Shown here piece after piece: positions 14,707 through 49,025 of a stretch of 64,000 bases of DNA. The notes under the pieces were generated by a model. It was not told the origin of the DNA and ran no database searches. It was given only the letters and a program-made list of their open reading frames with translations. This DNA is from Candidatus Electronema sp. JM (GTDB lineage: Bacteria > Desulfobacterota > Desulfobulbia > Desulfobulbales > Desulfobulbaceae). Numbering within the stretch: position 1 is the first letter of the stretch; each line of letters begins with the position of its first letter. The stretch spans positions 88,790-152,789 of the forward strand of contig NZ_JBLWEN010000001.1 of assembly GCF_048287415.1 (NCBI RefSeq), written 5' to 3'. Made by a program: the position numbers and the translations under genes.

Positions 14707-17247
14707 CTATTCTGCTCCAGCTCTATCACTCTCCCCGCTGTCCTCCGCGCCGTCTTCCTCTGCCTCCACATCGCCGGATGAGCGCGCCAAGATGGACATG
14801 TCCACTACCTTTTCGCCCTCGCCGAGATTGATCATCCGCACGCCCTGCGTGTTGCGGCCAATCACCCGGAAGGAGTCCATGGGCAGGCGGATCACCTTGG
14901 CCGAGTTGGCGATCAGCATGACCTGATCGCTGTCCTCCACTTGCAGTGCGCCGACCACCAAGCCATTGCGCTCGCTGGTCTTGATGGTGGAGACACCCTT
15001 GCCGCCACGGCTTTGCAGGCGGTACTCAGAGATGGCTGTGCGCTTGCCGTAACCATTCTCAGTCACAGTGAGGATGGACGTGGACTCGCAGTCGCTCTTC
15101 TTCAGCACCACCGCGCCGACCACCTCGTCCTCGTCCACCAGCGTGATGCCCTTGACCCCGCTGGCGACGCGGCCCATCTCGCGCACGTCATCCTCATGGA
15201 AGTGAATGGACTGGCCGTGCCGCGTGACAAGGAAGACCTCGTCCTCGCCGGAAGTGACAGCCGCGCAGAGTATCTCGTCGTCCTCGCGGATGGTCAGGCC
15301 GATCTTGCCCTTGCGCATGGGCCGCTTGTACTCAGCGATGCTGGTCTTCTTGACGATGCCTTTCTTGGTCACCGTGAGGATGGAGAGGGCCTCGTCAGCA
15401 TGGGCAAGATCAGCTATGGGCAGGATGGCCGCCACCTTCTCGCCCTCGGCCAGCTCCAGCAGATTGACTATTGCCCGGCCTTTCGCTGTACGCCCGCCTT
15501 CAGGCAGCTCATAGACCTTGCGCCAGAAGACGCGGCCCCGGTTGGTGAAGAAGAGGAAGGTGTCGAGCGTCGAGGCGGCATACAGGCCGGAGACAAAGTC
15601 GTCCTTGACATCGGCCATGCCCGCCACGCCCTTGCCGCCGCGCCGCTGCGCCCGGTAGAGACTGAGCGCGGCGCGTTTGATGTAGCCATTGTGCGAGACG
15701 GTGACCACCATCTCCTCGTCGGCGATCATGTCTTCCGGCAGTATCTCATCCGCCGCCTCGATGATCTCCGTGCGCCGCGCGTCGCCGTACTGCTCGCGGA
15801 TCTCGCGGAACTCGTCGCGGATGATCTGCATGACCAGCGCGTCGTCCGCCAGTACCTTCTTCAGCCAGGCGATGCGCTCAAGGATCTCCGCATACTCCTG
15901 CATGATCTTGTCGCGCTCCAAGCCGGTGAGGCGTTGCAGGCGCATGTCCAAGATCACTTGCGCTTGCAGCTCGGACAGAGCGAAGCGCTCCATCAGCCCG
16001 GCCTTGGCCTCCGGCGGGCCAGCAGCGGCGCGGATCATGTCCACCGCCGCGTCGAGATTGTCGAGAGCGATCTTCAGCCCTTCTAAGAGGTGGGCGCGCT
16101 CCTCAGCTTTGCCTAAGTCAAAGGCGGTGCGGCGGTACACCACCGTGCGCCGGTGCTCCAAGAAGTGAACGAGCAGCTGCTTGAGGTTAAGTATCTCTGG
16201 CCTGCCGTTGACGATGCAGAGCATGATCACGCCGAAGCTCTTTTGCAGCGGCGTGAGGCTGTAGAGCTGGTTGATGGTCACGTCCGGGTTCTCGTCCCGC
16301 TTCAGATCCATGACGATGCGCAGGCCGTCGCGGTCAGACTCGTCGCGCACCTCGGCAATGCCCGGCAGCCGCTTCTCCTTCATCAGCAGAGCGATGCGCT
16401 GCACAAGATCGGCCTTGTTCTGCTGATAGGGCACCTCAGTAACAACGATGGCCTCGCCTTCGCCCTTTTTGCGCCGCTCCACGTGCAGCCTGCCGCGCAT
16501 GACGATCCTGCCGCGTCCCGTCTCGTAGGCCTCGCGGATGCCCGCTCTGCCGCAGATGAAGCCGCCGGTGGGGAAGTCCGGGCCGCTGATCTGCTCCAGC
16601 AGCTCCAGCACGCTGATGCCGGGCCGGTCAATCAGCGCGAGCAGGCCGTCCATCAGCTCGCTCAGATTGTGCGGCGGAATCTTGGTGGCCATGCCCACCG
16701 CGATGCCTTCCGAGCCGTTGAGAAGCAGGTTCGGGATGCGCGAGGGCAGGACGGTCGGCTCCTGCTGCGAGCCGTCATAGTTGGGAATGAAATCCACCGT
16801 GTCCTTCTCGATGTCCGCCACCAGCTCCTGATCCAGCCTGCTCATGCGGGCCTCGGTGTAGCGCATGGCCGCCGCCGAGTCGCCGTCCATGGAGCCGAAG
16901 TTGCCCTGGCCGTCCACGAGCGGATAGCGCAGCGAGAAGTCCTGGGCCATGCGCACGATGGTGTCGTACACCGCCGTGTCGCCATGCGGGTGGTATTTGC
17001 CGATCACGTCGCCGACGATGCGGGCCGACTTGACGTAGGGCCGGTTGTGGAATGTGCCCAGCTCGCGCATGGCGTAGAGGCAGCGCCGGTGCACCGGCTT
17101 GAGGCCGTCGCGCACATCAGGCAGGGCGCGGCCGACAATCACGGACATGGCGTAGTCCAGATAGGACTTGCGCAGCTCCTTCTCTATGTCAACGGTCTGA
17201 ATCGCTTCGGGCAGGACTTCGTCCTGCGCTGCTTCTACTGTGGTCAT
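14707..17247 (-). CDS. gyrA: DNA gyrase subunit A
   Basis: An 846-aa full-length match to the GyrA pattern: catalytic region [10 protein letters not shown], the QRDR-type segment [11 protein letters not shown], and a C-terminal beta-pinwheel with an acidic tail. Confidence 0.97.
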
Positions 17248-17280: not shown

Positions 17281-17688
17281 TCAGCGCAGGCCGTTCTCAT
17301 TGAAGAATGCGCTGTACTTCTTGTCTGTGCCCTTGATGTGGCCTTGCAGCCAGTCGCGCAGGAAGTACAGGGTGTCTATGGAGACCGTCAGGCGGCCTCC
17401 CTCAAAGTCGATCTGGAACTCAGTCACCTTCTTGACAAAGGCGGCGTGCTCCTTCACATGCGCCGTTGTGTCCGGGTATTTGAACTGGGCGAAGTACTTC
17501 TCCTCCGCCTTGAAATGGGTGTCGGTGTAGCTGATCAGGCCGCTGAGGATCCTGCCCAGCACATCCTTCCCCTTGCCGCTCTTCATTGCGTCGTGCAGCT
17601 CGTTGATCATCGCCACCAGCTTGCGGTGCTGGCTGTCGATCTCCGCCACATTGACGCTCAAGCTCTCGTCCCACGCTATCAGGCTCAT
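17281..17688 (-). CDS. Bacteriohemerythrin
   Basis: ATG at 17688 with GGGAGGG RBS. WDESLSVNVAEIDSQHRKLV...HF..EE..F......H..EH..F......WL..HI..TD shows the hemerythrin His/Glu/Asp iron-ligand pattern. Confidence 0.85.
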   Translation of the reverse strand: MSLIAWDESLSVNVAEIDSQHRKLVAMINELHDAMKSGKGKDVLGRILSGLISYTDTHFKAEEKYFAQFKYPDTTAHVKEHAAFVKKVTEFQIDFEGGRLTVSIDTLYFLRDWLQGHIKGTDKKYSAFFNENGLR

Positions 17689-17713
17689 TTTGGCACCCTC
17701 CCTGTTTGCTTGG

Positions 17714-18586
17714 TTATTGTGGTGTTGCATTCTTACTGAAATATTTTTTCATGAGAATGAACCGTTCAACAGCGCAATCATTTCTAAGTTTCATGTATTT
17801 GCCATCAAATGGAGTTGGTGCATGCAGGCAGGCGAATTTTTCATCATATACAGTAAGCAGAACACCTCTCGCCCGTGTGAAGAAATCAGCATGTTCTAAT
17901 TTTTTAAGCTTGTTGTCCCAGCCGACTTTTTTTATCCTGTCTGTTCTGCAGATAAAAAAATTTGGCACTTTATCGTAAACAGGAAGGCCTGAAATTTTGC
18001 TGCCGATTGGAGCCACAGGCTGAGAATCAGTCGGATACAAACCTATCTTGCTGTAAGCATGAATTGTAAAAAAAGGAAGGTCAATCACCTTTCCTCCTAA
18101 TATATCAATTCTTGAATCAGAATCTATCAAATAAAGACTATCCTCTATCTTTGTTTTTCTGAAAAAGACAAAATCGTCATCTAAAAAAAGCGTGTACTTT
18201 GTTGCAACGCAACCTAACGCCGCATTTCGTCCTGCGGATATGCCTGAATTATATGGCATGGTTATCTTCTCAACGCTCTTGACTTCTTCTGGATGCAGAC
18301 TGTCATCAACTACAATAATTTTAATAGATGGATAATATTTCCTTATACTCCGCAGAAGACGGACAAGTGCTTTGTAACGTTCAAATGTTTTTATAACAAT
18401 CGTTAGTTCATTCAGCAGCTCGCTGTTGCTTGGAGCGGCAGGTTTTAGTGAATCAAGAAAATTTTGCAGTGCCAATTCAAGATAAATAACAAAATCGTAA
18501 AAAAATTTAGCAACAAATTGAACCCTGCTGCCCATCAGAGCATATTTTATCTTTTTCAGATAAAAAAAAGCGATATTTTTATTCAT
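17714..18586 (-). CDS. Family-2-like glycosyltransferase, strongly AT-rich
   Basis: LTIVIKTFERY...IKIIVVDDS and FLDDDFVF resemble GT-A fold DxD motifs. A hand count of 18101-18200 gives 27% GC. Confidence 0.6.
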   Translation of the reverse strand: MNKNIAFFYLKKIKYALMGSRVQFVAKFFYDFVIYLELALQNFLDSLKPAAPSNSELLNELTIVIKTFERYKALVRLLRSIRKYYPSIKIIVVDDSLHPEEVKSVEKITMPYNSGISAGRNAALGCVATKYTLFLDDDFVFFRKTKIEDSLYLIDSDSRIDILGGKVIDLPFFTIHAYSKIGLYPTDSQPVAPIGSKISGLPVYDKVPNFFICRTDRIKKVGWDNKLKKLEHADFFTRARGVLLTVYDEKFACLHAPTPFDGKYMKLRNDCAVERFILMKKYFSKNATPQ

Positions 18587-19502
18587 GCGACTTGCTTTCC
18601 TTCATTAAATTTTGTTGTTTCTGCTCCTGTAAGCTGGCCAGTTCCTCGCCGGACAGGCCAGTGCTGGCAGCAATAACCTCCAGCGCGACACCGTGCGCCA
18701 GCAGGCTGCGGGCAACAGCGAGCTTCTCCTCACGTTTTCCCTGTTCCATGCCTTGTGCCATGCCCTTCGCCAAGCCATCCTTCTCCGCCTTGGCCAGCGC
18801 TCCCTGCTGGAGCATGATGAAGTCCCGGCGTTTGAACTGCATCTCCAGCTCCTCCTCGTTCAGGGCGGCAGTGTTGGCCAAATCAAAGGCATCAAGCAGC
18901 GGCGGCTCAGTGAAGGTCTTGGGGATGAAGTCAAGGCTGCCAGCGTGCTTGATGAAGTATATCCATTTATCGGTGACGGAATCCAGCTCAGTCTCGCTTT
19001 TGCTGAATTTTGGCAGCTCGATGAAGATCAGCTCAATGTCGCCATTGTACTGAACAAGCTGCTCTTTTTCTCTGAGATCCCAATACGAAATAGCCTTGCC
19101 GAACTCAGGGAACATCGCAAAGTCGGTGATGGTCAGGGCTATGACCGGCTCCAAGCTGGCGTAGTGCTGCGAGCGTTTGAGCTGAGATGAGTAAAGTTTG
19201 GCGGCGTTGTACAACACCCGCTTCTCAAAGCCCTCGACATTCAGCACCTGCATCTCGACGATCACCCTGCGCTGATTGGACAGCACCGCCTTCACGTCCA
19301 CATAGCTGTCTTTCATGCCTTTTAATAGCGGCACCTGATACGGATCAACTATGGTCAGGTCGGTAATTTGCGCATCTTCAAAGTCAATCACGGCATTGAG
19401 GAAGTCAATCAGGATGCCTTTTGACTGCTCGCTGCCGAAGTTTGGCAATCTCTTCTTCAGATAATCCCGTGCTGGCAGCGATGACCGCCGATGCAACGCC
19501 AT
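18579..19502 (-). CDS. Rpn-family (YhgA-like) PD-(D/E)XK recombination-promoting nuclease / putative transposase, paralog 2
   Basis: LIDFLNAV...DLTIVDPY...DSYVDVKA....VIVEMQV shows the nuclease core pattern, with a helical C-terminal tail (LLAHGVALEVIAASTGLSGEEL). Start is uncertain: ATG at 19502 or TTG at 19523. Either start overlaps the upstream paralog by about 100 nt. Confidence 0.65.
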   Translation of the reverse strand: MALHRRSSLPARDYLKKRLPNFGSEQSKGILIDFLNAVIDFEDAQITDLTIVDPYQVPLLKGMKDSYVDVKAVLSNQRRVIVEMQVLNVEGFEKRVLYNAAKLYSSQLKRSQHYASLEPVIALTITDFAMFPEFGKAISYWDLREKEQLVQYNGDIELIFIELPKFSKSETELDSVTDKWIYFIKHAGSLDFIPKTFTEPPLLDAFDLANTAALNEEELEMQFKRRDFIMLQQGALAKAEKDGLAKGMAQGMEQGKREEKLAVARSLLAHGVALEVIAASTGLSGEELASLQEQKQQNLMKESKSHE

Positions 19503-20286
19503 GCGCCAGCAGATTGCGGGCAATAGCGATTTTTTCTTCGTATTTCCCTTCGGTGCGTCCCTCTTCCTTTGAAGACCAGAGCATGGACTGCTGATACGAC
19601 ATATTTAGCATATATTCATCATAGGCTTTGCGCTGCGGCTCATCTAAATTCATCATCCGCAGCCGTGCCGAGGCTTCTTGGATATGCTTGGCCCTGAAAT
19701 CAGGGCGCACTTCGCTGTGCTTGAGCATGTAAATCCATTCATCCAATCCAGACTGCACTTTATCGGGGAAATCCTCAACGCGAATAAGGTAATGCTCAGG
19801 AAATATTTTGCGCACATCGCTGATGCCGAACAGCTCCTGCTGTCTGTTGCTCAGGCTGAGTATATCTTTGCTGTGAACGCCGACAAAATTGGTGGAGCCG
19901 TAATAGAGATAATCTGTGCCGATGCCAAGACTGAAATAGGTGATGCTGACCGAGATGATTTTTTTGATTTCCCGGTACGGCTGGCCTTTTTCTAAATATT
20001 CGGTCATCAGTTTGGCGACACCGTAGGCGATGCGGTGGAAGAAATCGTATTCCGATTTCACCTGCACTTCAATCAGCAGCAACTCGCCTTTGCTGTTTTC
20101 AACCAGCAAATCAACGCGGTTGAATTTATCGAGGCTGTCTTCCTGATTGCTTTCGCTCTCCAAGAGATTGACGACGGTGACATCTTCATCAAGCACGGCA
20201 GTGAGGAAGCCTTCCAGAACGGAAAAATTGGCTTTGTCGCGCAGCAGCTTTTTGATAGCCCAGTCAAAGCGGATGAGTTTTTCCAT
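19405..20286 (-). CDS. Rpn-family (YhgA-like) PD-(D/E)XK nuclease, paralog 1
   Basis: DWAIKKLLRDKANFSVLEGFLTAVL...FNRVDLLVENSKGELLLIEVQV shows the D...E.Q core. The C-terminal tail LLAHGVASAVIAASTGLSEEEI is paralogous to that of the downstream gene. Confidence 0.7.
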   Translation of the reverse strand: MEKLIRFDWAIKKLLRDKANFSVLEGFLTAVLDEDVTVVNLLESESNQEDSLDKFNRVDLLVENSKGELLLIEVQVKSEYDFFHRIAYGVAKLMTEYLEKGQPYREIKKIISVSITYFSLGIGTDYLYYGSTNFVGVHSKDILSLSNRQQELFGISDVRKIFPEHYLIRVEDFPDKVQSGLDEWIYMLKHSEVRPDFRAKHIQEASARLRMMNLDEPQRKAYDEYMLNMSYQQSMLWSSKEEGRTEGKYEEKIAIARNLLAHGVASAVIAASTGLSEEEIAKLRQRAVKRHPD

Positions 20287-20376
20287 GTTACGGTCTATTC
20301 AAAATCAATTACAAGGAAAATTTTTATGGTTATTCCGAGCACAACGAGGAATCTTTGCTGCTTCTGAAACATCCAT

Positions 20377-21864
20377 CTATCGGCTGACACCAGCTTTGCG
20401 CTGGGCTATATCATCCAGTGCTTGCTGAAGCAACTTGGCCTTAGGGTGTTTCATTTTCTGATACAGGTGCAGGCTCCTCTTCCAAGCTGCTTCCGCCTGA
20501 TCAAAATTACCGTATGTCACATACACGCTGCCCAAATTTCCGTATGTGCTCGCCGTTGCTTCTTTTAGCCCCAAGGCTTCGCTGATCTCAAGGCTCTTTC
20601 TGTACATCTCCTCCGCCTTGCCCAATTCGCCGTGTTTGAAGTGTATACTACCCAAATTAGCATACTGTATTGCTGATGTTTCCTTCAACCCCAAGGCTTC
20701 GCTGATCTCAATGCACATCTTGGACATTTTTTTCGCCTTGCCCATCTCGCCGCGTCTTGCATACATATTGCCCAGATTGCCATAATCTTGCGCCATGCAT
20801 TCCCTGCGCCCCAAGGTTTCGTGGATCGCAAGTGCTTTCATGTACATCTCCTCTGCCTCGTCCATCTCGCCGCGCGTAAAGTGTGTATTACCCAGATTGG
20901 CGTACTGGTTCGCTGTTGCTTCCGTCAGTTCCAAGGCTTCGCTGATCTCAAGGCTCTTTTTGTACATTTCCTCTGCCTTGCCCTGCTCGCCACGTATCCT
21001 ATACACATTACCCAGATTCCCGTAATCTTTCGCCATGCCTTCCTTGCGCCCCAAGGTTTCGTGGATCGCAAGTGCTTTTATGTACATCTCCTCCGCCTTA
21101 TATAGCTCACCGCGTGTGCGATACACATTGCCCAGATTACAAATAGCGATTCCCTGTAGCTCGTTGTCCTGATTTGCCTCGCCCAAGGCCAGCACCTTGT
21201 AGTATGCCTCTTCGGCCTGCGCAAATTCCCCTGTGCGGAGGAGTAAGGTGGCAAGCATATTCCAGCCCTCCGCATTGTCCGGGTCAAGCTCCACAGCCTT
21301 CTGATATGCAGTTAGGGCTGCCTTGGTATCGCTCATAAAGGCCAATGCGCCCAAATGCCGGGCGGCGGCGGCTGCTTCCTTGTTCGCCTTCCTTCCTTCT
21401 GCCTCCTTGGTCTTCAGCACTTCAGCAAAGATGGCTTGAGCCAGTTCGGTACGCCCCTGCTCCAAAGCCTTCAAGGCTTCGTTGATGCTCTTTGGTGGCG
21501 CATCCGTCTTGGACAGAGCAGCAATTGCTTCCGTTAATGCCTTGATCTGCTCGTCTTTGGCCTCCAACTGCCCTTGCAATAGCTTTACGGCCAGCTTTCC
21601 CGCATCAACTGCCGGTGCCTTGTCCATGTATTTGTTCCAAACCGCAAGGAAAAAGCCAAGCACCGTCACACTCATCCCAAGCTGGAAGCCATAGGCGAGC
21701 ATCAACTTGATGATCATGCCTGACTCCTCTGGTGAAGGCGGTTGCAGCAGCTTAGAGTCAATGAGCTTAGTGTGGATGCCAAAGACAAGCATCAGGACAA
21801 AGCCCACTAGCACCAGCGGGACAGCCAGATACTTGGCAATCTTCTCAAAGTCTGTGAAGTTCAT
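20377..21864 (-). CDS. Membrane-anchored TPR-repeat protein
   Basis: Two N-terminal TM helices, a coiled-coil stretch, then about 8 TPR units of the YGNLGNVYRxRGExxKAEEMYxKxLxI type. The units are repetitive at the DNA level. Confidence 0.8.
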   Translation of the reverse strand: MNFTDFEKIAKYLAVPLVLVGFVLMLVFGIHTKLIDSKLLQPPSPEESGMIIKLMLAYGFQLGMSVTVLGFFLAVWNKYMDKAPAVDAGKLAVKLLQGQLEAKDEQIKALTEAIAALSKTDAPPKSINEALKALEQGRTELAQAIFAEVLKTKEAEGRKANKEAAAAARHLGALAFMSDTKAALTAYQKAVELDPDNAEGWNMLATLLLRTGEFAQAEEAYYKVLALGEANQDNELQGIAICNLGNVYRTRGELYKAEEMYIKALAIHETLGRKEGMAKDYGNLGNVYRIRGEQGKAEEMYKKSLEISEALELTEATANQYANLGNTHFTRGEMDEAEEMYMKALAIHETLGRRECMAQDYGNLGNMYARRGEMGKAKKMSKMCIEISEALGLKETSAIQYANLGSIHFKHGELGKAEEMYRKSLEISEALGLKEATASTYGNLGSVYVTYGNFDQAEAAWKRSLHLYQKMKHPKAKLLQQALDDIAQRKAGVSR

Positions 21865-22040
21865 GTGTGCTCGTGGTGTATTGCAAGAAACGATGCAGGC
21901 AGGCTGCGGGGACAGTCGCCGCAGCGCCTTTACACATTCGATTCTAAAACTTCCTCATCGCCAACCTACGCTTGGCTGCGCAACTGCTTCGGATAAGGCT
22001 GTATCAACGTTGGCAGGCCAGCTCCGATCTTTTCAAGGCA

Positions 22041-22290
22041 GCCTCCTTTTCTTCCGCGCTCAAGCCCTCTTTTAAAAAGGACAGGCCCTTTTCTTAAAAG
22101 GGCGCATCCTTTCAACGAAAGAGTATCTCCTTTTTTAAATAGGGCTTCCGCTTTTAACAAAAGTGCGCGTTCTTTTCTTAAAAAGAACGCCTCTCTTAAC
22201 GAAAGAGACCTCCCTCTTTAAAAGAGGACACGTCCTATCGAAAAATTAGGGCTTCATTTTCTTAAAAGGACAGCCTCTTTCGTCCAACGG
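22041..22290. repeat. Phased array of ~10 short A/T-cored palindromes with ~21-bp period
   Basis: Units include CCCTTTTCTTAAAAGGG (22086-22102), GCGTTCTTTT-CTTA-AAAAGAACGC (22167-22190, perfect 10-bp arms) and CCTCTTTAAAAGAGG (22213-22227). Unit centres fall at about 22073, 22094, 22115, 22136, 22158, 22178, 22200, 22220, 22242 and 22262. Confidence 0.85.
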
Positions 22291-22336
22291 GGCCGTGCAT
22301 TTGTTCCGCAGCCCCGGTTGTTCGCCGAAGTTCCCT

Positions 22337-25300
22337 TCACACATCCAGCTCAGAAACCTCCAGCGCGTGGTTCTGGATGAACTCGCGCCGTGGCTCGACC
22401 TTGTCGCCCATCAAGGTGACGAACAAATCATCCGCAGCCTCGGCATCCTCAATCCTGACGCGCAGCAGGGTGCGGTTGGCCGGGTTCATGGTCGTCTCCC
22501 AAAGCTGCTCCGGGTTCATCTCGCCCAAACCTTTATACCGCTGCAAATGACTGCCCCGGAAGGTCTCCTCGCGGACAACACGAATCAGCTCGCGCCAATT
22601 TTTAGCCGGAATTTCCTTCTCCTGACCAGAGGCCGCATTCTTGCAGAGGGTGAAACTGCTGCCGATGTGCTCCCTGATTTCAGGATAGAGATCAAGACCG
22701 AGCCGGTATTCGGGAATCAGCGGAATATGCGGCCCGATGACCGCACGGGTGTGGGCCAAACCTTGAAAGGCCGCCTCCGCCTCAAAGCAACTGGGCCGGG
22801 ACGCGCAAACGCGAATGCCGCTGGTGACGGCATTGATGCTGGCGAGCTTATCCAGCAGCCCGTGCAGGAACGCCTCCTCCTTGAATTGATCCGCAGAATG
22901 GACATCGTTTTCAAGCAGGAAGAGGGTGAGCTGCTCCTGAATGTTCATCCGTTCCAAGAAGGTGCTGATGCGCTCAAACAGGGTGAGCTTCTTCAGCAAA
23001 CTGACCAGTTCCTGCCCGGCCAGCACGCTGCCGTTCTCCAAGCGGACTTGCACAAACTGGGCCGCCTGATCGTAAAGGTGGTTGTTGAGCGCGTCCTCAT
23101 CCAGGAAATATTGCTCCTTCTTGCCCCGGCCCAAGCGATAAAGCGGCGGCTGGCCGATATAAACATAGCCTTGCTCGACCAGCGGCAGCATCTGGCGATA
23201 GAAGAAGGTGAGCAGCAAGGTGCGGATGTGCGCGCCGTCCACGTCCGCGTCGGTCATGATGATGATCTTGTGGTAGCGCAGCTTGCTCGCATCAAACTCC
23301 TCCCGCCCGATGCCGGTGCCCATTGCGGCGATCAATTGCTTGATCTCCTCCGAGTCGAGAATCTTGTCGAAACGTGCCTTCTCCACATTCATGATCTTGC
23401 CGCGCAACGGCAGGATGGCTTGGATGGAGCGGTCGCGGCCTTGCTTGGCACTGTTGTGAACAAACACGCCGCTGGCTAAAGCAAAATTGTGCGTGTTCGG
23501 CACTTCGATGTCGTACACATCAATACGCTCGGTCAGCTTCTCCACTGAGACAACGCGGTGGTTGTAATTGCTCACCGCTTCCAGAGCGCGTTCGGTGTTG
23601 TTATCAAAATACCGCTGGCAGAAGGTGTCAAAGCGCAGCAATGATTTGTCCTTTGTGGCAATGCGGTGCTGGCGGTAGCCTTCAAGATCAACTGCGCCGG
23701 GCCGCAGCTCGTGCCGCTTGAGCACGGCCAAAGTTTTCCGGTAATACGTCTGCTGCAACGCAGCTTGGCGGCGGGCGCGGAACTCTGCTGTCCATTGCTG
23801 CTGAGTTTTCTGACTGCGCCACGCCAGCAGCTCGGCATCGCTCCATTGCTCTTTCGCCTTTCGTGACTGCTCCGCACGGGCTTCCGGGTGCTCTTCAAAA
23901 TAGGAACGCACCCGTTCAGCTTGGGCCAAGCGGTTTTCCTCATCCTGCCAGTAGATTTTCTGCGCCTCATTCAACAAAGCGGCATTTTGCTGGCGATATT
24001 CTGCGTTGCTGCGGTAGAACTCCCGCCATTTGTCGGCCATGAAGGCTTTGTACGCCGCATCGTCCCATTGCACTTGAGCGCGTTCAGAGAGCTGCTGCCG
24101 CAACTGCATCATGCGTTGGCTCATCTTGGTGCGGAATTCAGGACTCTGCCGGACAGCCCGACTCTTTTCGATCACATCGGGCCGACGCAGGGTTCGGTCA
24201 GCGTGCTGCCGATGCAGGCGCAAATGCTCTTCCGCCGGAAGCCGCCGGATGTTGGAGGGATTGTTGTTGCGCTTATTGAAATCAAGGTGATGCCGATGTT
24301 CGCCATCTTCAGCCTGATAACCACCTGCCTTGCAGTTATATTTATCGGCAAGGACATGTGTGAATTTCCAGCGGCTGGCATTTGGTTCCCAAACCATTTC
24401 ATAGCCGTCAATGGTGATGCCCGGTTCATTCATATCCGAGAGCTTGCGATACAGCGGCATCAAAGAAGTGCCGACAGTCAGCCGTTCTGCCGGGCAATAG
24501 CTGCCATCGCGAAGCAGGAAGCGGTGATCCGGGGTGCAGACAATCTGCTCGCCATTGTCCAGCGTCACCTGCACAACTTCCTGCTGCCGCTTAGTCAGGC
24601 GCGGATGCAAAATCCGTTCGAGGCCAATCTTGCCGTCTGCTTGAATGGTGTAGCAGAAATGCTCTTTGCCCTGCTCCTGCTCGGCGATCAGCTCCAAAAA
24701 GCTGAGGGCGCGGCCATCGGCCAAAGCCACTTTGGTCTCGCCAGAAAAGCAGCCGCCCGCTGAATCGCCCTCCACGAGAAACAGCTCGCGCTCTGCCGGA
24801 TTCTTCGACTGGCATTCAGCCAGCTTGCCTGCCATCAGCAGAGAAATGCCGTCCTTCTTGCGTGACAAATCACGCGCCTTCCGCGCCGCTTCTCTGGCCC
24901 GCGCCGCCTCGACCGCCTTGCTGAGTATCTGCCGCGCCACCTGCGGGTTGCGCTCCAAGTAATCGCCAAGCTGCTCGGTGCAGATGGAAGCGACGATGCC
25001 CTTCACCTCGGAGTTGCCCAGCTTGGTCTTGGTCTGACCCTCGAACTGCGGATTCGGCACCCGCACTGAAATGATTGCAGTCAGGCCCTCGCGCACATCA
25101 TCGCCCTCCATTTTCTCCTTCATGTGCTTGGGCACAATGTCATCAGTGGCGTATTTGTTGATGCACTTGGTCAGCGCGGCGCGGAAACCCGCCACATGCG
25201 AGCCGCCTTCGCGGGTGTTGATGTTGTTGACAAAGGAAGCCAGCCGCTCAGTGTAGCTGTCCACATATTGCAGACAGACCTCGACCTGCACCTGCTCCTG

Positions 25301-26047
25301 CTCGCCTTCCAGAAAGATCGGCTGCGGATGAATCGGGGTGCGGTTGCGGTTCAGGTGCTCGACATATTCAACCACGCCGCCTTCATAATGAAACACATCC
25401 TCAGCCCCGCTTTGCTCATCCTTCAGGGTGATGTGAACGCCCCGATTGAGAAAAGCCAGCTCGCGCAGCCGGTTGAGGACGATCTCGTATTTGAACACAA
25501 CCGTCTGGGTGAATATCTCCGGGTCTGGCTTGAAAGTAATCGTGGTGCCGGTGTGCTCGCTGGTGCCAACCACCTCCAGCTCGCTGGTCTTTGCGCCGTA
25601 AGAGAAGGTCTGCCGGTAGAGCTTGCCGTTGCGCCGCACCTCAGCGGTGACATGGGTGGAGAGCGCATTGACCACCGACACGCCCACGCCGTGCAATCCG
25701 CCGGAAACTTTATAGGACGAATGATCGAACTTGCCGCCCGCGTGCAAGGTGGTCAGCACCAGCTCAAGAGCGGTCATGTTTTCCGTCGGATGCTTGTCCA
25801 CCGGAATGCCGCGTCCGTTGTCTTCGACCGAGCAGGAACCGTCCTCCAGCAGGATCACCTTAATCTGGTTGCAGTATCCGGCCAGAGCCTCGTCAATCGA
25901 GTTGTCCACCACCTCGTAAATCAGATGATGCAGCCCTTCTTCCGCCGTGTTGCCGATATACATGGACGGACGCTTGCGCACCGCCTCAAGCCCGTCAAGA
26001 ACCTTGATCTGATCCGCCCCGTAGGACGTGTTCTGCTGTTCGCTCAC
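22337..26047 (-). CDS. gyrB: DNA gyrase subunit B, interrupted by an intein
   Basis: GTG at 26047 (AGAAGG 7 nt upstream) gives the canonical N-terminus [31 protein letters not shown]. The GHKL ATPase, transducer and Toprim (EGDSAGG / SAKQGRDR) regions are present. The extein totals about 803 aa once the 433-aa insert is removed. Confidence 0.95.
23453..24751 (-). mobile_element. GyrB intein (433 aa) with HNH-type endonuclease insert
   Basis: The insert lies between EGDSAGG and SAKQGRD. Block [11 protein letters not shown] (Cys codon 24751-24749), block B TPDH, block [15 protein letters not shown], block G VFVHN|S (Asn codon ends at 23453). Internal HNH motif [29 protein letters not shown]. 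Confidence 0.9.
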
Positions 26048-26352
26048 TTGCTTGCCTTCTCTGAAGAATTTATACGGAAAACGGCATGGTTGCGATGCGG
26101 CGCGCCGCATCCTGCCGGAAGCGGCTCATCATACCATAGTTCCGGCAAAAACGGGGAAAAATCTGCGGTTTGCAAGGAATTTTATCCAGATGGCCGCGCC
26201 GCCGCCAAGGAGCATTCCAGCGCGGAGCACTGCTGGCAAAATATGCAATAACGAAGAAAACAGGAACAGCCTGAATACAGTGGCATTTTTTCGCTACGAC
26301 TGGTATGATGGGCGGAGCTTGCCATTTTTATTTTTCATTGAGGAGAAGCGTT

Positions 26353-27050: not shown

Positions 27051-28052
27051 ATGGCGCTTTTTGAAGGATACGAACGGAGAATCAGCAAGATCAACGCGGT
27101 GCTGGCCGAACACGGGATCAAGGATTTGGATGCGGCCAAGCAGCTCTGTTTAGATGCGGGCGTGGATGTCTATGCCATTGTCAAGGGCGTGCAGCCGATC
27201 TGCTTTGAGAACGCCTGCTGGGCCTACATCGCCGGTGCGGCCATTGCTTTGAAAAAAAGGCAGAAAAAGGCGGTGGAAATTGCCTCCACTTTGGGCATCG
27301 GCTTGCAGGCCTTTTGCATTCCCGGCTCAGTGGCCGAAAACCGCAAAGTGGGCATTGGTCACGGCAACTTGGCCGCCCGGCTCCTTAGCGAGGAAACAAA
27401 GTGCTTCGCCTTTCTCGCCGGGCATGAGTCCTTTGCCGCTGCGGAAGGCGCCATCGGCATTGCCAGATCCGCCAACCGGGTGCGCACTGAGCCGCTGCGG
27501 GTCATCCTCAACGGCCTCGGCAAAGACGCGGCCTATATCATCTCGCGCATCAATGGCTTCACCTATGTGAAGACACAGTACGACTACTACAGCGGCGCAC
27601 TCAACATTGTTGAGGAAAAGGCGTTTTCCAGCGGCGAGCGGGCCAAAGTGCGCTGCTACGGCGCGGATGACGTGCGCGAGGGCGTGGCCATCAACCACTT
27701 GGAGCTGGTCGATGTGTCCATCACAGGCAACTCGACCAACCCGACCCGCTTCCAGCATCCGGTGGCCGGAACGTACAAGAAGGAATGCCTTGAGCAGGGC
27801 CGGAAGTATTTCTCGGTGGCTTCCGGCGGCGGCACAGGCCGGACGTTGCACCCAGACAACATGGCCGCTGGTCCGGCTTCTTACGGCATGACCGACACCA
27901 TGGGCCGGATGCACAGCGACGCGCAGTTCGCCGGCTCGTCCTCCGTGCCTGCGCATGTCGAAATGATGGGCTTTATCGGCATGGGCAACAATCCGATGGT
28001 TGGCGCATCAGTGGCGGTGGCAGTGGCCTTGCAGCAGGCGGCGGGGCAGTAA
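27051..28052 (+). CDS. GGGtGRT-family protein (function unknown)
   Basis: Contains the family-defining SGGGTGRT motif (FSVASGGGTGRTLHPDN). It starts 5 nt after the upstream gene's stop. Confidence 0.8.
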   Translation: MALFEGYERRISKINAVLAEHGIKDLDAAKQLCLDAGVDVYAIVKGVQPICFENACWAYIAGAAIALKKRQKKAVEIASTLGIGLQAFCIPGSVAENRKVGIGHGNLAARLLSEETKCFAFLAGHESFAAAEGAIGIARSANRVRTEPLRVILNGLGKDAAYIISRINGFTYVKTQYDYYSGALNIVEEKAFSSGERAKVRCYGADDVREGVAINHLELVDVSITGNSTNPTRFQHPVAGTYKKECLEQGRKYFSVASGGGTGRTLHPDNMAAGPASYGMTDTMGRMHSDAQFAGSSSVPAHVEMMGFIGMGNNPMVGASVAVAVALQQAAGQ

Positions 28053-38100: not shown

Positions 38101-39444
38101 CGGCTGCACACCTCCATCACCGGCTTGGAGGAGCGCACAGGCCGCCGCTTCGGCTCGCCGGAAAACCCGCTGCTGCTTTCGGTGCGTTCCGGCGCGGCGA
38201 TTTCCATGCCCGGCATGATGACTACGATCCACAACGTCGGCCTGAACGAGGATTTGCTGGAGGAGCTGTGCGTCAAGCACCCGGAGCAGGAGTATTTTCT
38301 CTGGGACACCTACCGCCGCTTCCTGCAATCTTGGGCGATGGGCGAAGGCATGGGCCGCGAGGAGTTCGGCGCGCTGATGAACGCGCACAAGAAACGCTAC
38401 GGCAAGCGGCTGAAACGCGAATTCAGCCCGGCGCAGATGCGCGAGCTGGCTCTTGAATACCGCAACGCCATGCGGCGGCACGGATGCAGCGCGCCGGAAG
38501 ATCCTTGGCTTCAGCTGGTGCGGGCGGTGGAGATGGTGCTGGATTCGTGGAGCACCCATAAAGCCCGCCAGTACCGCCACCTGATGGCCGTCTCCGACGA
38601 CTGGGGCACAGCAGTGATTGTCCAGACGATGGTCTATGGCAACCGCAATCAGCAGTCCGGCAGCGGCGTGCTCTTCACCGCCCATCCCTACCGCAAGGTG
38701 CGGCGGGTCGCGCTCTGGGGCGATTACGCCTCCGGTGATCAGGGCGAGGACATCGTCTCCGGCCTTGTCACCAGCTATCCGATCTCGGTCGAGCAGGCGG
38801 AGCTGGACGGGCGTTCGGTCGAGCAGAGCCTCGAACGCCGCTTCCCGGAGATCTACGAGCAGCTCCTCAGCATCTCCCGCGACTTGGTGTACACTAAAGA
38901 ATGGAACCCGCAGGAGATTGAGTTCACCTTTGAAAGCCCTGACCCGGACGATCTCTACGTGCTCCAGACCCGCGACATGATCACCATCAAGAAGAAGGAG
39001 CATTTCCGGGTCTTCGAGGAAAGCGAGGCGCAGCAGGCGGCGGTGCTCGGCAAGGGCATCGGCGTGAGCGGCTCCGCCATCTCCGGCCTGGCTGTCTTCA
39101 CCGACGAAAACATCCGCCAGCTCCGCCACGAGCAGCCGGACATGCCGCTCATCCTCCTCCGCCAGGACACGGTGCCGGAGGACATCCGGGAAATCTCCAT
39201 GTGCGACGGCCTGCTCACCGCGCGCGGCGGCCAGACCTCGCACGCTTCCGTGGTCGCAACGCGCTTGGAGAAAACCTGTGTGGTCGGCTGCCGCGACTTG
39301 CAGGTCTTCGAGGACAAGGAGCAGGCGGCCATCAACGGCCTTGTGATAAAATTCGGCGACCCGGTCTCCATTGACGGGCGCAGCGGCCTCTTCCTGCGCG
39401 GCATCCATCCGACGCGAGAAGAGGTGCATATTTTGCCGCTGTAG
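35194..39444 (+). CDS. 1416-aa PPDK-like protein: ~900-aa unknown helical N-terminal region + PPDK-type ATP-grasp + swivelling phospho-His domain, with no PEP/pyruvate TIM-barrel domain
   Basis: From about residue 915 it reads HLGNKGFNLMLLA..G.PVPPAFIITTE, LLLSVRSGAAISMPGMMTTIHNVGLN, GVLFTAHPY and GDQGEDIVSG. The mobile domain is GLLTARGGQTSHASVVATRLEKTCVVGC. The protein ends about 65 aa after the catalytic-His motif. Confidence 0.75.
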   Translation: MNTTQPPPIASKALEANFQQTASAVAISPRYAPLREAVARYQGLSARLEHLLYEISHPFRNWQLIIAELRPFVLKNLNHYLSHAQGPDCFALFSSIFLDALKDSRKNSKVIALTMEAMLAYADKVVASLKPDMLPLYGPQLNAFFEQLARLDEIDSSLMAHMVQGHHPMKKMAAQLISLSRSAGAETFSCAAAAKLLRKILEINYACWLGEEDPQPWFESQCGGGSCCGQAGTDLAAISHSRMREHLTALEQISIDEDPQEALSRILELPAHIDIVRLYREIPGKLGEHAADTDPAAVENRKLFFLFRIMETSGLSLIHEETLREINRSLVQLIRRQSFDEIAEFFTTAFHLLKANVRKYPHTSLQCIQVIGGEVFQRGNSRLVEAFLFETVRFGFQHANVMGVDEDWQPISNPAHLANIRVWLNLIMQEPKWCSTLFSALIINLRLSGTCVKDTDLFQRDITQLLNHPIGPIYNLAKQFSKLMPVFFNEIGAEGELRDVSTELDELHKRHDVLIHFLRKQSHVESSNLIVGFIRAIYSFWLTLDKKPLAAYLPEEILSQVASSGPYVDELHLLAQQVREELEYSTVDELLTWDEAERKDWLLRQSDISAGERKRFDLLVRMFKLLHHKYSLGMDELRGQLEHAVQNGFPEMTELLEVLEHGDTWTCLDAVLTQLEQLKETILSDKKFAPKEEIYYKRHIAVDIPSVYGRYSERKFDALGLTFRLESLANIYLERLNRSINLGFITQATFIGIAKSLSLSLRALKIDGISSRRLDTYTSLLNSSISIKRFTYTQHLDIFRGLSEGVKDVIYAYYTNIHQNNLSVIIPQIGGENLLTKNRTLWDEKDMSSTVHRLSESFFRDLIAATFGLQHLDNFITRIIHTLEAQRDILDEQTLDLLMTYNPEIAISSLYNENPLTHNLIHLGNKGFNLMLLANDGKPVPPAFIITTEIFRCWQAVQGFTKAREEFMQRLHTSITGLEERTGRRFGSPENPLLLSVRSGAAISMPGMMTTIHNVGLNEDLLEELCVKHPEQEYFLWDTYRRFLQSWAMGEGMGREEFGALMNAHKKRYGKRLKREFSPAQMRELALEYRNAMRRHGCSAPEDPWLQLVRAVEMVLDSWSTHKARQYRHLMAVSDDWGTAVIVQTMVYGNRNQQSGSGVLFTAHPYRKVRRVALWGDYASGDQGEDIVSGLVTSYPISVEQAELDGRSVEQSLERRFPEIYEQLLSISRDLVYTKEWNPQEIEFTFESPDPDDLYVLQTRDMITIKKKEHFRVFEESEAQQAAVLGKGIGVSGSAISGLAVFTDENIRQLRHEQPDMPLILLRQDTVPEDIREISMCDGLLTARGGQTSHASVVATRLEKTCVVGCRDLQVFEDKEQAAINGLVIKFGDPVSIDGRSGLFLRGIHPTREEVHILPL

Positions 39445-39451
39445 CTGATGG

Positions 39452-39478
39452 CGAAAAAGGGGCGAAGAAAATCGCCCC
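39452..39478 (-). terminator. Rho-independent terminator of the AT-rich operon (hairpin shared with the convergent PPDK-like gene)
   Basis: GGGGCGA (39459-39465) pairs with TCGCCCC (39472-39478). Read on the minus strand, the hairpin is followed directly by TTTTT. Confidence 0.6.
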
Positions 39479-39495
39479 AGTAGAATCAGCGCAAA

Positions 39496-40212
39496 CTATT
39501 GAGCAGTGCCTTTTCGAGGAATCTTCAGCCGTAGTCTTGGATAAATTAAGTTTGGGTTATCCATCAACTGAGGATGCTTCTCTTTATTTGCCAAAATAAT
39601 TTCTTGAACAGAAACGTGGTGTCGTTCAGCGATCTTTCCTAAACAATCGCCTTCCATTACTTGATAGCAGTCTTTGCCTAAATAGCAATCAACAGTCTCC
39701 TTTAGTTCTGTGATATTTTCTGGATTGGCATAGAATATGTAGACTGGCGCGAAAATCAAAGAAACAGCGTACCATCTTTTTTTACGAAATATCCATCTAA
39801 TGTTTATTGTTTTTTCATAAATTTTTTTTATTTTGCTTTTGCAATTTTCAATAAAAATTATGCCGCCGCTCAAGATGCCATCTATTTTATAGACAAAAAC
39901 AGGCAGATTCGACCTGTATTTCCGTATCAATCTATTTCCATATCCTTCCATGTAAAGAAGGATAAAAAACAATGTAAAAACACAGAATGCTATTATTTTA
40001 AATAAAATCATTAAAATCCAAGGAAGCACCCGGAGCGCAAGCCAAGGAATCAACAACATCAATACGAAAAGAATAACAAACGGGAGTGCAACGGATAGCC
40101 ATTCTGATCTTGATGCAGAAAATAGCTGTTCGGAAATAACTTGGAAGAAAAGAATACCTTTTATAAGGTATTCATCTTGAATTTGGTTTAACAGGCTATT
40201 CAGGCGTTCCAT
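39496..40212 (-). CDS. Island gene D: polytopic membrane protein with C-terminal LysM domain
   Basis: There are 3-4 hydrophobic helices (LSVALPFVILFVLMLLIPWLAL, ILMILFKIIAFCVFTLFFILLY, AVSLIFAPVYIFY). The LysM-like C-terminus is YQVMEGDCLGKIAERHHVSVQEIILAN...IYPRLRLKIP. The start overlaps the gene C stop by 17 nt. Confidence 0.7.
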   Translation of the reverse strand: MERLNSLLNQIQDEYLIKGILFFQVISEQLFSASRSEWLSVALPFVILFVLMLLIPWLALRVLPWILMILFKIIAFCVFTLFFILLYMEGYGNRLIRKYRSNLPVFVYKIDGILSGGIIFIENCKSKIKKIYEKTINIRWIFRKKRWYAVSLIFAPVYIFYANPENITELKETVDCYLGKDCYQVMEGDCLGKIAERHHVSVQEIILANKEKHPQLMDNPNLIYPRLRLKIPRKGTAQ

Positions 40213-41437
40213 CTCTCCTTATTGATTCAGGGTGTATATTAATATCCGCACTTTCTTCTTGTTGATCCTGTTGTTTTTCCTCGCTGGATGACTTTTCTCC
40301 AATAAGAGCAGCTCCTTGGTCTGACAATCTTCCTACCTTCTGCACAAGTGATTTGGCAATATCCTCAAACCTCCATTCGCCGATCACACCTTTTTCAACG
40401 AAAATTTTTAATATTTCTATACAAGTTGAATTCTCTTCAACACGCATCTTCTCTTCCCTGTCTATTTGCTGTTTGACAAATGAAAGCAATTCTCTGTCGT
40501 TTGGATTTTCTGGATTGCATATTGCAATAATTCCGCGCCAATTACCAATTGACAGGAGCGGCGACAGCAGCGTTTCCCTATTTAGCCTATGATTGAATTC
40601 AATTCGCTGCATTTCAAGCTGCTTCTCAAATTCAATCTGCTTGATTCGCATCTCTGCTTCCATTTTCTTCAATTCAAAATTCATACTTTGTTCCAGCAGG
40701 ATAGTTTGCCTATAAAGCTCAATTTTCCTATCCTTAAATAGCAGCTCCTGTCTCATGGACTCTATCTCCATTTTCTGCTGCATCAGCCGTTTTTCCATTT
40801 CAGCCTTTATGGCATCTACCGAGAATTGCTCCTGAATGATTTTTTCTTGATTTTTTGCATCTATCGTCCCCAGCTTTCCATCAATCAGCCTTTTGCTGAT
40901 GGATTCATGTGGCGACAGCGTAACGAATGGAGGACGGCTTAACTTGAATCCTAAGTCATGAATTTTATTGCCATATATCAATTGACTTTTAAGCTCCTCA
41001 ACAACAGCTCGTTCTGCCTGCGATGCCTGCTCGTTCGCATAGTTTCGACAGATAGGCCGGATTATATCAAGAGCTGACTCTTTTAAAAAATCCCGAATGT
41101 CTCTCCTTCCATTCTGCACAATAAGCAATGGATTATCTATGCAATAAGTCAATGTGACTTCAGCTTGAAAAGGGAGTTCGTCAGCACAAGGAATACTTAC
41201 TGAAAAAAGAATTGAATATTCCGACAGATCAACTTCATAATACACCTTATATGTGCCGATGAGAATGTCGCCAGCTGTCGGCCCGCCATTTTTTCCTGCG
41301 TAAACAACAATTGGCGGACAATTTTCTCCAAGAAAGACATGTGCCTTTCCGAATTTCGGCGATTCAGGCCGTTTGAAGGAAAATTTTTCCAGTTTTCTCT
41401 CAATAACAAGCGGATATTCTTCAGGAGCGAAATCCAT
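40196..41437 (-). CDS. Island gene C: SPFH/band-7-like N-terminal domain + long coiled coil (flotillin-like architecture), putative
   Basis: FSVSIPCADELPFQAEVTLTYCIDNPLLIVQNG..DIRDFL resembles the SPFH beta-alpha core. Residues ~195-290 are Glu/Lys/Met/Gln-rich heptad-like sequence. The start overlaps the gene B stop by 17 nt. Confidence 0.5.
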   Translation of the reverse strand: MDFAPEEYPLVIERKLEKFSFKRPESPKFGKAHVFLGENCPPIVVYAGKNGGPTAGDILIGTYKVYYEVDLSEYSILFSVSIPCADELPFQAEVTLTYCIDNPLLIVQNGRRDIRDFLKESALDIIRPICRNYANEQASQAERAVVEELKSQLIYGNKIHDLGFKLSRPPFVTLSPHESISKRLIDGKLGTIDAKNQEKIIQEQFSVDAIKAEMEKRLMQQKMEIESMRQELLFKDRKIELYRQTILLEQSMNFELKKMEAEMRIKQIEFEKQLEMQRIEFNHRLNRETLLSPLLSIGNWRGIIAICNPENPNDRELLSFVKQQIDREEKMRVEENSTCIEILKIFVEKGVIGEWRFEDIAKSLVQKVGRLSDQGAALIGEKSSSEEKQQDQQEESADINIHPESIRRDGTPE

Positions 41438-42929: not shown

Positions 42930-42942
42930 TTTTGATCTCTCT

Positions 42943-43353
42943 TCATTTTTTATTTATTTGATCCCTGCCTATAAAAGTCCCTTCATTGACAAAGGTGGAA
43001 TTTTTGATAAGCACACCTCCTGTTTGCACAATTCTTTCTACCTTTACCCCATAAAGCCGTGCGATATCTAACGCTAATTCCTGATCTTCTTGGAGCAGCT
43101 TTTTCACTTGAAAGTGCAGAGTCTTCTGCGCATCTTCTTCTGAAGGATCCCGTACCACATCTTCTGCCGCCATTTTCACACCTTCAACTCTTGCAGAAGA
43201 ACGGGAAGAAATTTTTGTCCAGACAGCCTTGGCCGTCTCCCATCCGTCAGAACCTATTTTTTCTAACGCTCCTCCCAGTATCTGTCCCCCACCGCTCAAC
43301 AGATAAGGAAGTACTGGCACTAAAGAAGAAACAACCATTTCAGCAAGTTCCAT
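42943..43353 (-). CDS. Island gene A: small helical protein (136 aa) resembling N-terminal adaptor modules of conflict-system NTPases
   Basis: LVPVLPYLLSGG..ILGGALEKIGSDGWETAKAVWTKI...DPSEEDAQKTLHFQVKKLLQEDQELALDIARL is followed by EGTFIGRDQ. It is the first gene of the operon, 13 nt upstream of gene B. Confidence 0.55.
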   Translation of the reverse strand: MELAEMVVSSLVPVLPYLLSGGGQILGGALEKIGSDGWETAKAVWTKISSRSSARVEGVKMAAEDVVRDPSEEDAQKTLHFQVKKLLQEDQELALDIARLYGVKVERIVQTGGVLIKNSTFVNEGTFIGRDQINKK

Positions 43354-48967: not shown

Positions 48968-49025
48968 AACTCTCAGCGTATATCCATGTCGTCACCTGAC
49001 ATGGCTTTAAATTGAAAAAGCAATG

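Follow-up and report, generated by a model that had tools for sequence, protein, structure and literature searches.

The gyrB-gyrA locus and its palindrome array

The stretch of DNA analysed here, referred to below as the window, comprises 64,000 nucleotides (nt) of the genome of Candidatus Electronema sp. JM (contig NZ_JBLWEN010000001.1) and carries gyrB (22337..26110) and gyrA (14707..17247) on its minus strand. Past the stop codon of gyrB lies an array of short, evenly phased palindromes that is the subject of this report. The gyrB assignment is based on the list of open reading frames (ORFs) and on Pfam matches to DNA_gyraseB, Toprim, DNA_gyraseB_C and Intein_splicing; the encoded protein is 1257 amino acids long due to an intein (Intein_splicing, residues 473-886) positioned between the GyrB and Toprim domains. 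The gene downstream of the array was identified by Pfam scan as encoding a TPR protein (20377..21864, minus strand). In the sense of gyrB and the TPR gene the array is read from 22296 to 22024, starting 40 nt past the gyrB stop codon and ending upstream of the TPR gene.

The array consists of 13 consecutive 21-nt units in a strict, gap-free register (22024..22296, minus strand), which becomes apparent when the sequence is printed in 21-nt rows from position 22024. A T-run/A-run palindrome of the form CCTTTT-N3-AAAAGG is present in ten of the 13 units, and these form the array core (22066..22275, minus strand), whereas the units at 22024, 22045 and 22276 are degenerate. An earlier note on this DNA had listed eight palindromes phased at about 21 base pairs (bp). 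All eight are present at the coordinates given there when both strands are read, and additional palindromes are located in the units at 22129 (CCTTTTTTAAATAGG) and 22234 (CCTATCGAAAAATTAGG), so the array is somewhat larger than had been described. The unit consensus on the plus strand is CCTTTTCTAAAAAGGGCACGC; in the gyrB sense it consists of a variable 6-nt G+C spacer followed by CCUUUU-N3-AAAAGG. Two types of unit, one with an AAG loop and one with a GUU loop, alternate along the minus strand. The previously noted palindrome with perfect 10-bp arms (22167-22176 and 22181-22190) was recovered independently by a repeat search.

The periodicity is formal and strong, and the phasing and the 20-22 bp centre-to-centre distances reported in the earlier note are borne out: the 13 units follow each other without indels, and the dyad centres are 20-22 nt apart. 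Autocorrelation of base identity reaches 0.48, 0.54 and 0.48 at lags of 21, 42 and 63 nt, respectively, compared with a maximum over all lags of 0.40 (mean 0.33) among 1000 dinucleotide shuffles. The value at lag 42 exceeds that at lag 21 because the AAG-loop and GTT-loop units alternate on the minus strand. A pattern of three successive palindromes (CTTT-N5-AAAG) occurs once in the window, where 0.00 occurrences are expected, and perfect T-run/A-run hairpins of at least 5 bp are clustered solely at the array within the 64 kb. Tandem Repeats Finder did not report the array, since its units are just 50-60% alike. The array is therefore real, its signal is far above chance, and it is unique in the window.

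Occurrence among relatives

Relatives were collected by a search with the C-terminus of GyrB, which returned partial GyrB proteins of 71-91% identity whose contigs were then examined. The closest, metagenome contig L083 (GyrB 91% identical in the search and 93% over 231 aligned residues), has an orthologous array immediately past its gyrB stop codon. Window positions 22322..21946 align with this contig without a gap over 377 nt, with 63 differences (83% identity), and the 13 units correspond one to one; the core units are likewise orthologous unit for unit. A third copy, from Candidatus Electronema sp., is visible solely through a 69-amino-acid "hypothetical protein", P0253 (UniRef UPI004057290B), that surfaced when the longest plus-strand frame of the region was submitted to a full HMMER scan. 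Residues 4-34 of P0253 correspond to one plus-strand frame of the non-repetitive tail that accompanies the array, and residues 34-69 to another frame, in the array itself; for this reason P0253 is considered a spurious ORF that runs across an array element. Compared with the window, its sequence differs by a 1-nt indel in the tail block and shows no frame change over the four array units that it covers. The ortholog sample thus consists of two full sequences and one partial sequence, and the possibility raised earlier that the array might be absent from all related genomes does not hold, as it is present both in L083 and in Candidatus Electronema sp.

The other relatives examined lack the array. 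In L085 (GyrB 86%) the gyrB stop codon is followed by 11 nt and a terminator hairpin, and the array is also absent from L084 (79%), L219 (75%) and L220 (71%) and from the Desulfobulbaceae genomes L001 and L002. An exact 22-mer of the conserved block yielded 0 matches in viral and metagenome collections, and BLASTN searches against plasmids and phages returned no match to the insert that carries the array. The generic three-palindrome pattern was found at 120 metagenome loci with many different periods (15-42 nt), and none of these is homologous to the array. The array is firmly placed as restricted to a narrow clade around Candidatus Electronema.

Anatomy of the insert

The array is one part of a non-coding insert that measures 392 nt in the window and 404 nt in L083. 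In the gyrB sense, the end of gyrB is followed by the insert, composed of a GC-rich hairpin, the 13 units and a non-repetitive tail, and then by a pseudo gyrB end and a terminator-like hairpin. The left boundary is marked by the first copy of a direct repeat, GAGCTGGATGTGTGA (22337..22351, minus strand), which represents the last 15 nt of gyrB including its TGA stop codon. The second copy, GAATCGAATGTGTAA (21930..21944, minus strand), marks the right boundary and agrees with the first at 10 of 15 positions in the window; in L083 the repeat is perfect, with the 15-mer GAGCTGGATGTGTGA occurring twice, 404 nt apart, and with similarity extending to 21 of 25 positions. Past the second copy lies a terminator-like hairpin, GCUGCGGCGACUGUCCCCGCAGC (21903..21925, minus strand), recognized by repeat search and by alignment with L083 and L085. 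At this position L083 has a hairpin homologous to that found past the gyrB stop codon of the array-free L085 (the two have GGGGGCAGTTT...CTGCC in common); the window hairpin aligns to the same position and has diverged. These boundaries firmly establish that the array lies in a target-duplicating insert at the stop codon of gyrB.

At the 5′ end of the insert is the GC-rich hairpin (22288..22317, minus strand; CCGGGGCUGCGG...GGCCCCG), which has no U-tract after it and which is paired in both orthologs, with G-C to G-U changes (columns 8-34 of the consensus fold). No convincing terminator was found ahead of the array. At the other end of the array, a block of 43 nt (22021..22063, minus strand) is identical in the alignment of the window with L083 and contains the Shine-Dalgarno-like sequence AAGGAGG (22042-22048). 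Five nucleotides past this sequence a 10-codon frame may be read, UUG AAA AGA UCG GAG CUG GCC UGC CAA CGU UGA (22004..22036, minus strand), and L083 has a frame of the same length with the same stop (MKRSELACQR in the window, MKRSEPSCQR in L083). Judged from these letters, AAGGAGG and the frame (22004-22048) could constitute a tiny leader ORF or merely a conserved purine-rich site. The rest of the conserved non-repetitive tail occupies 21945..22020 (minus strand).

Two routes by which such an insert might have arisen were considered and rejected. A MITE-like or casposon-like element would account for the direct repeat of 15-25 bp, but terminal inverted repeats of the insert are not significant (an internal 11-mer gave P = 0.02 in the window and P = 0.32 in L083). 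For tandem accretion, a third copy of the gyrB-end repeat was sought at the far side of the neighbouring gene island and was not found.

The island between gyrB and gyrA

In L001 and L002 gyrA begins about 60 nt past gyrB, and on this ground the roughly 5 kb that separate the two genes in the window represent an insertion into an ancestral gyrB-gyrA pair. The earlier note had located the array at the junction of gyrB and foreign DNA, and this placement agrees with the gene order of these genomes. The island (17281-22336, minus strand) is co-directional with the pair that it splits and has a lower G+C content. Between gyrB and gyrA are found, in addition to the array, the TPR gene, two PDDEXK_2 (Rpn-family) genes, a GT2 glycosyltransferase gene and a hemerythrin gene. 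Pfam scans covered 18 ORFs of the window, among them all genes that separate gyrA from gyrB and those immediately beyond gyrB; they revealed no gene for an integrase, a transposase, Rep or Par, and PADLOC reported nothing relevant for the neighbouring genes.

The best homologues of the TPR protein are from cable bacteria (Candidatus Electrothrix, Candidatus Electronema and Desulfobulbus sp. F5). The two Rpn-family genes have orthologs in L083 (86% and 81% amino-acid identity), and the gene between the array and the Rpn genes is the TPR gene in the window and a NERD-domain gene in L083. The exchange of TPR for NERD beside orthologous Rpn genes suggests a hot spot of cassette exchange. It was considered whether the array is a leader or promoter element linked to the TPR gene. 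This was ruled out because the regions upstream of the TPR homologues in Desulfobulbus sp. F5 and Electronema V4 are short, unrelated and without an array, and also because a NERD gene, not a TPR gene, lies downstream in L083.

Coding potential

A repeat of 21 nt corresponds to seven codons, and the exact multiple of three together with the lack of indels would be compatible with a decayed or cryptic protein-coding heptad repeat, as the earlier note had also contemplated. One candidate is the plus-strand frame from 21997, which reads as P-F-L-K-R-x-x heptads, is open for 74 codons with one later stop, and has HMMER matches to other heptad-repeat proteins. This longest plus-strand frame has no start codon, however, and stops are present in every frame of both orthologs. 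The substitutions between the window and L083 are spread over the three codon positions as 19/24/20, that is without periodicity, and the ratio of synonymous to non-synonymous changes ranges from 15:34 to 7:43 over the six frames, so that non-synonymous changes are in excess by about 2-6 to 1 in all of them, compared with 47:17 in gyrB. P0253 from Candidatus Electronema switches frame relative to the window. With the exception of P0253, the 30 HMMER matches are unrelated low-complexity heptads from many sources (PMNERMG, APFLNQT, SPFTVRS and others), and a concatenated six-frame query had no match among 5.8 billion proteins; an intact coding homologue was thus not found. A coding origin of the repeat can be regarded as effectively refuted, and the array is firmly assessed as non-coding.

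Conservation and folding potential

Between the window and L083, identity amounts to 78% for the ten core units and 78.6% for the four-fold degenerate sites of gyrB; from this comparison the core units drift at an approximately neutral rate overall. The substitutions are distributed unevenly along the unit. Numbering positions in the gyrB sense, the spacer plus 5′ arm (positions 1-12) has 34 substitutions in 120 sites (72% identity) and the 5′ arm alone (positions 7-12) has 15 in 60 (75%), whereas the 3′ purine arm AAAAGG (positions 15-20) has 4 in 60 (93%). The 120-nt tail, with 12 substitutions in 120 sites, is 90% identical. Among the codons of P0253, CCTTTT (P-F) is kept in three of four units and the AAAAGG codons are altered more often, which was read as the same arm asymmetry. 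Indels are absent from the 377 aligned nucleotides, which are rich in T and A runs, compared with three in about 80 aligned nucleotides of flanking sequence; if indels were uniformly distributed, such a pattern would have a probability of roughly 0.005, a value that is a rough estimate. It is firmly concluded that the number of units, their register, the purine arm and the tail have been kept while the rest drifted.

Potential for hairpin formation was evaluated per unit in both strands. Summed over the ten core units, the predicted folding energy in the gyrB sense is -48.4 kcal/mol for the window and -46.3 kcal/mol for L083, compared with -42.3 and -27.3 kcal/mol, respectively, in the antisense direction. 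When the observed substitutions were placed at random the sums were -32.3 +/- 6.6 kcal/mol (P = 0.021) for the window and -25.5 +/- 5.8 kcal/mol (P = 0.001) for L083. Since the real energies are better than those obtained with randomly placed substitutions, hairpin potential has been retained beyond chance, and it is biased towards the gyrB sense. On that strand, mismatches of the G.U type outnumber those of the A.C type by 25 to 9. A two-sequence consensus fold of the whole insert was dominated by interchangeable pairings between units and was uninformative.

Possible roles and origins of the array

The array is probably a non-coding cis-element under constraint. The reading ranked first, which is put forward tentatively, is that it acts as a string of hairpins in the gyrB 3′ untranslated region (UTR), with effects on transcript stability, termination, insulation or protein binding. 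The insert lies between the gyrB stop codon and the terminator-like hairpin, and it would most likely be transcribed as gyrB 3′ UTR, because no convincing terminator precedes the array and the hairpin lies beyond the insert. No sigma-70 promoter was predicted in 21600-22600; the same interval has six terminator-like sites (1.6 expected), of which five are in the array, all on the minus strand and not conserved in L083. On the RNA each 21-nt unit may fold as a weak hairpin with CCUUUU as the 5′ arm, a loop of 3-5 nt and AAAAGG as the 3′ arm, which would result in a string of about ten hairpins joined by 6-nt G+C linkers. Such a string could act in cis by protecting the 3′ end or slowing exonucleases, by leaky and cumulative termination, by insulating gyrB from the inserted island and gyrA, or by offering repeated purine-rich sites to a protein.

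An RNA element is favoured by the position of the insert ahead of the terminator-like hairpin, by the retained hairpin potential and by strand asymmetry: the unequal conservation of the two arms (4/60 against 15/60 substitutions) is not predicted for a symmetric duplex operator, and together with the G.U excess it points to the gyrB-sense strand. Several observations weigh against hairpins as the selected feature. Position-specific covariation is absent; paired and unpaired positions diverge equally (23% and 24%), and of 23 changed pairs nine are kept and 14 are broken, with two double compensations. Watson-Crick pairs in the outer arms number 20 of 40 in the window, compared with 15.2 +/- 2.5 after permutation (P = 0.045), and 13 of 40 in L083, compared with 12.0 (P = 0.39). 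Individual stems are weak (-1 to -10 kcal/mol), and some units fold in just one of the two species, with weak folders in one folding well in the other. The G.U excess may in part reflect regional G-richness of the minus strand and is not independent between the two orthologs. Finally, independent RNA hairpins offer no obvious reason for a strict 21-nt register without indels. Because the outer-arm pairing is marginal and paired and unpaired sites diverge equally, the palindromy is mostly a repeated palindromic consensus, and not the result of unit-by-unit compensatory evolution; what persists between the two full sequences is the pattern of a T-run followed by an A-run and its spacing, not particular base pairs. 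Support for the earlier proposal of outer arms that vary and yet remain complementary is marginal.

The strict register is more readily explained at the level of DNA. Here the units would be 15-bp operator-like palindromes for a dimeric protein, set two helical turns apart and bound cooperatively on the same face of the helix; the resulting filament, roadblock or centromere-like or iteron-like complex could insulate or regulate transcription across gyrB, the island and gyrA. Such a platform is possible though somewhat unlikely. In its favour, all three lineages keep strictly to the 21-bp register, without a single indel in 377 nt in spite of the homopolymer runs, the palindromic consensus recurs as a motif and does not depend on unit-specific covariation, and the palindrome potential retained above chance is predicted by a platform as well. 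An analogue is sopC of the F plasmid, where 12 phased repeats with a 16-bp inverted repeat are bound by SopB (PMC3177203). The arms, however, are conserved unequally, the sites drift at the neutral rate with some badly degraded in one species, and the units are far more diverged than those of known centromere or iteron arrays. The scanned ORFs include no Par, Rep, integrase or classical regulator gene, the nearest candidates with a helix-turn-helix being the two Rpn-family genes, and neither a cluster of DnaA boxes nor an AT-rich unwinding element lies nearby. Static curvature is not predicted either: in a wedge-model trajectory, the ratio of end-to-end distance to contour length was 0.92, as for the window mean (0.92), with 0.87 for shuffles and 0.27 for a phased A6 control. 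Of the two levels proposed in the earlier note, a platform for a dimeric protein on DNA and RNA hairpins in the gyrB 3′ UTR, the strand asymmetry leans slightly towards RNA and the strict spacing slightly towards DNA.

An element without present function would account for the rate of change of the core, which equals that of the gyrB four-fold sites, and for the missing covariation. Under this explanation, which is judged unlikely, a tandem-repeat fragment was inserted once at the 3′ end of gyrB, as a mobile-element remnant, by ectopic repair or by target-duplicating site-specific integration, and is now drifting; palindromy and phase would be inherited from an original unit of 21 or 42 nt. The target duplication that flanks the insert, its single copy in the window, its narrow range (with absence from the relative whose GyrB C-terminus is 86% identical) and the sporadic occurrence of tandem 21-bp T-run/A-run arrays in unrelated metagenome contigs are all in keeping with a relic. 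Simple drift is difficult to reconcile with the contrast in indels between the homopolymer-rich 377 nt and the short flanks, with units that are about 50% diverged from each other and yet never out of register, with the conservation of the tail and purine arm above that of neutral sites, and with hairpin potential in excess of that expected from random placement of the same substitutions. A further origin, amplification in situ of a genome-wide REP/BIME-like or MITE-like palindrome family, is very unlikely. The array is extragenic, lies directly 3′ of a stop codon between direct repeats and has tandem palindromic units of two alternating types, and REP clusters in 3′ UTRs are known to affect mRNA turnover (PMC3479197, PMC3184786). 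Points against a family of this kind are the absence of any other copy in the window or in the cable-bacterium loci examined, stems that are A/T-cored and variable in place of conserved and G+C-rich, the lack of terminal inverted repeats, the absence of RAYT or IS200-type transposase genes among the 18 scanned ORFs, and the lack of matches in plasmid and phage collections. A chromosomal or iteron-type origin of replication was rejected, as there is no DnaA-box cluster and no rep gene and the cumulative GC skew maintains its downward trend at about 22 kb.

A more speculative scheme, regarded as rather improbable, envisages a novel phased nucleoprotein platform confined to freshwater cable-bacterium relatives. 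An oligomeric protein would read AAAAGG/CCTTTT every 21 nt, on one helical face of the duplex or on the 3′-UTR RNA, and the resulting filament would gate read-through from gyrB into the Rpn-nuclease island and gyrA, coupling gyrase balance or silencing of the island to a single cis-element.

If functional, the array would be an unusual cis-element. It interrupts the transcription unit of an essential topoisomerase gene where a nuclease-rich island has come between the ancestral neighbours gyrB and gyrA, and it could illustrate the way in which cable bacteria shield essential operons from DNA that they acquire, or lead to a repeat-reading protein of a new kind. Should it be a relic, it would still illustrate cleanly how a non-coding insertion can duplicate its target at the stop codon of a gene. 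The "hypothetical protein" P0253 also serves as a warning for annotation, as this database entry is a spurious reading of the array.

Other features of the window

Upstream of gyrB, and divergent from it, a gene at 27051-28052 (plus strand) encodes a GGGtGRT-family protein (Pfam E = 1e-193) and lies beside a weak NifU-like ORF. In L001 gyrB is preceded by dnaN, which is absent here, and the region upstream of gyrB is for this reason considered to be rearranged as well. Apart from the array, the 21-nt periodicity that is strongest in the window is coding and resides in two adjacent genes (55782-57314 and 57301-58539, plus strand) for membrane proteins with "RTxLAxx" heptads, the first of which was scanned and has a DUF202 domain and an MshEN-like N-terminus. 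Patches of low G+C content (0.37-0.49) at 39000-43500 and 48300-49000, with genes for a LysM protein and an SPFH/Band 7 protein and ORFs without a Pfam match, are probably further acquired DNA.

Comparison with known systems

The REP and BIME elements of Enterobacteria and Pseudomonas are similar to the array in several respects, as they are short, imperfect tandem palindromes located directly past a stop codon within a transcription unit, with two alternating types of unit. They are thought to act as 3′ hairpins of mRNA, and BIME-2 clusters are also targets of gyrase. REPs differ in being high-copy sequences with conserved G+C-rich stems, in alternating orientation and linked to RAYT genes, whereas the array occurs once in 64 kb, with A/T-core stems (U4:A4 plus 1-3 G-C pairs) and units 50-60% alike in a strict 21-nt period, and is without a RAYT gene among the 18 scanned ORFs. 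That REP clusters sit in 3′ UTRs and affect mRNA turnover is documented (PMC3479197, PMC3184786).

Among DNA-level systems, the partition arrays (F sopC, R1 parC and pSK41 parC) have about a dozen phased repeats with an inverted repeat for a dimeric protein, spaced by integral helical turns, and the array likewise presents phased repeats with inverted-repeat sites. In sopC of the F plasmid there are 12 repeats of 43 bp, each with a 16-bp inverted repeat (PMC3177203). Centromere repeats are, however, nearly identical to each other and lie beside parA/parB or parM/parR, while the array units are strongly diverged with unequal arms, and none of these par genes was found among the scanned ORFs. 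Iteron origins (the 22-bp repeats of R6K and the lambda origin) have units of 17-22 bp in helical phase, a description that also applies to the 13 x 21 bp of the array, and the lambda iterons are themselves A-tract-cored palindromes. Iterons usually number 3-7 copies and are found beside or inside a rep gene, accompanied by DnaA boxes and an A+T-rich region for unwinding; the array has none of these features.

On the RNA side, the sponge small RNAs CsrB and RsmZ are also beads-on-a-string hairpins with repeated purine-rich motifs within a few hundred nucleotides; the array differs in resembling a 3′ UTR rather than an independent gene. A role as a CsrA/Rsm sponge was rejected, since GGA is not enriched (12 occurrences compared with 9.7 +/- 2.1 in shuffles, P = 0.2) and the loops are AAG or GUU. 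The repeat RNA of a type III toxin-antitoxin system (ToxI-like) was likewise discarded, given that the units are diverged, that the downstream gene encodes TPR (window) or NERD (L083) and not ToxN, and that PADLOC gave no relevant hit. No Rfam family was matched; at permissive thresholds the models produced a best, sub-threshold match to a plant microRNA model at 33 bits, compared with a gathering threshold of 171, and an engA motif at 20 bits compared with 46.

Formal counterparts are 21-bp CTTTT..AAAAG arrays in metagenome and viral contigs (L089-L097, L117, L168, L169, L188, L195 and L206), which have the same period, a T-run/A-run palindrome and an 8-bp spacer, a resemblance imposed by the search itself, as they were found with a pattern that demands an array-like shape. 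They have no sequence homology to the array, consist of 4-8 often near-identical units, and are located beside Bacteroidetes-type tyrosine integrases or downstream of housekeeping genes. In L089 (3405-3500), as well as in L090-L097, L117, L169 and L188, which are viral and gut-type contigs, there are five phased 21-bp units of CTTTTTTAAAAAG plus 8 bp; in L089, the one contig checked, these lie between two tyrosine integrase genes with Arm-DNA-binding domains, beside mutS2. Such units may be binding sites for a recombinase or an accessory protein at the end of an element. The array is a confirmed, unusual and unclassified cis-element that can be likened both to extragenic palindromes and to phased binding-site arrays and that falls outside the defining tests of each family tried; if functional, it would be unusual in its dozen or so strongly diverged units, in which evolution keeps spacing rather than sequence.

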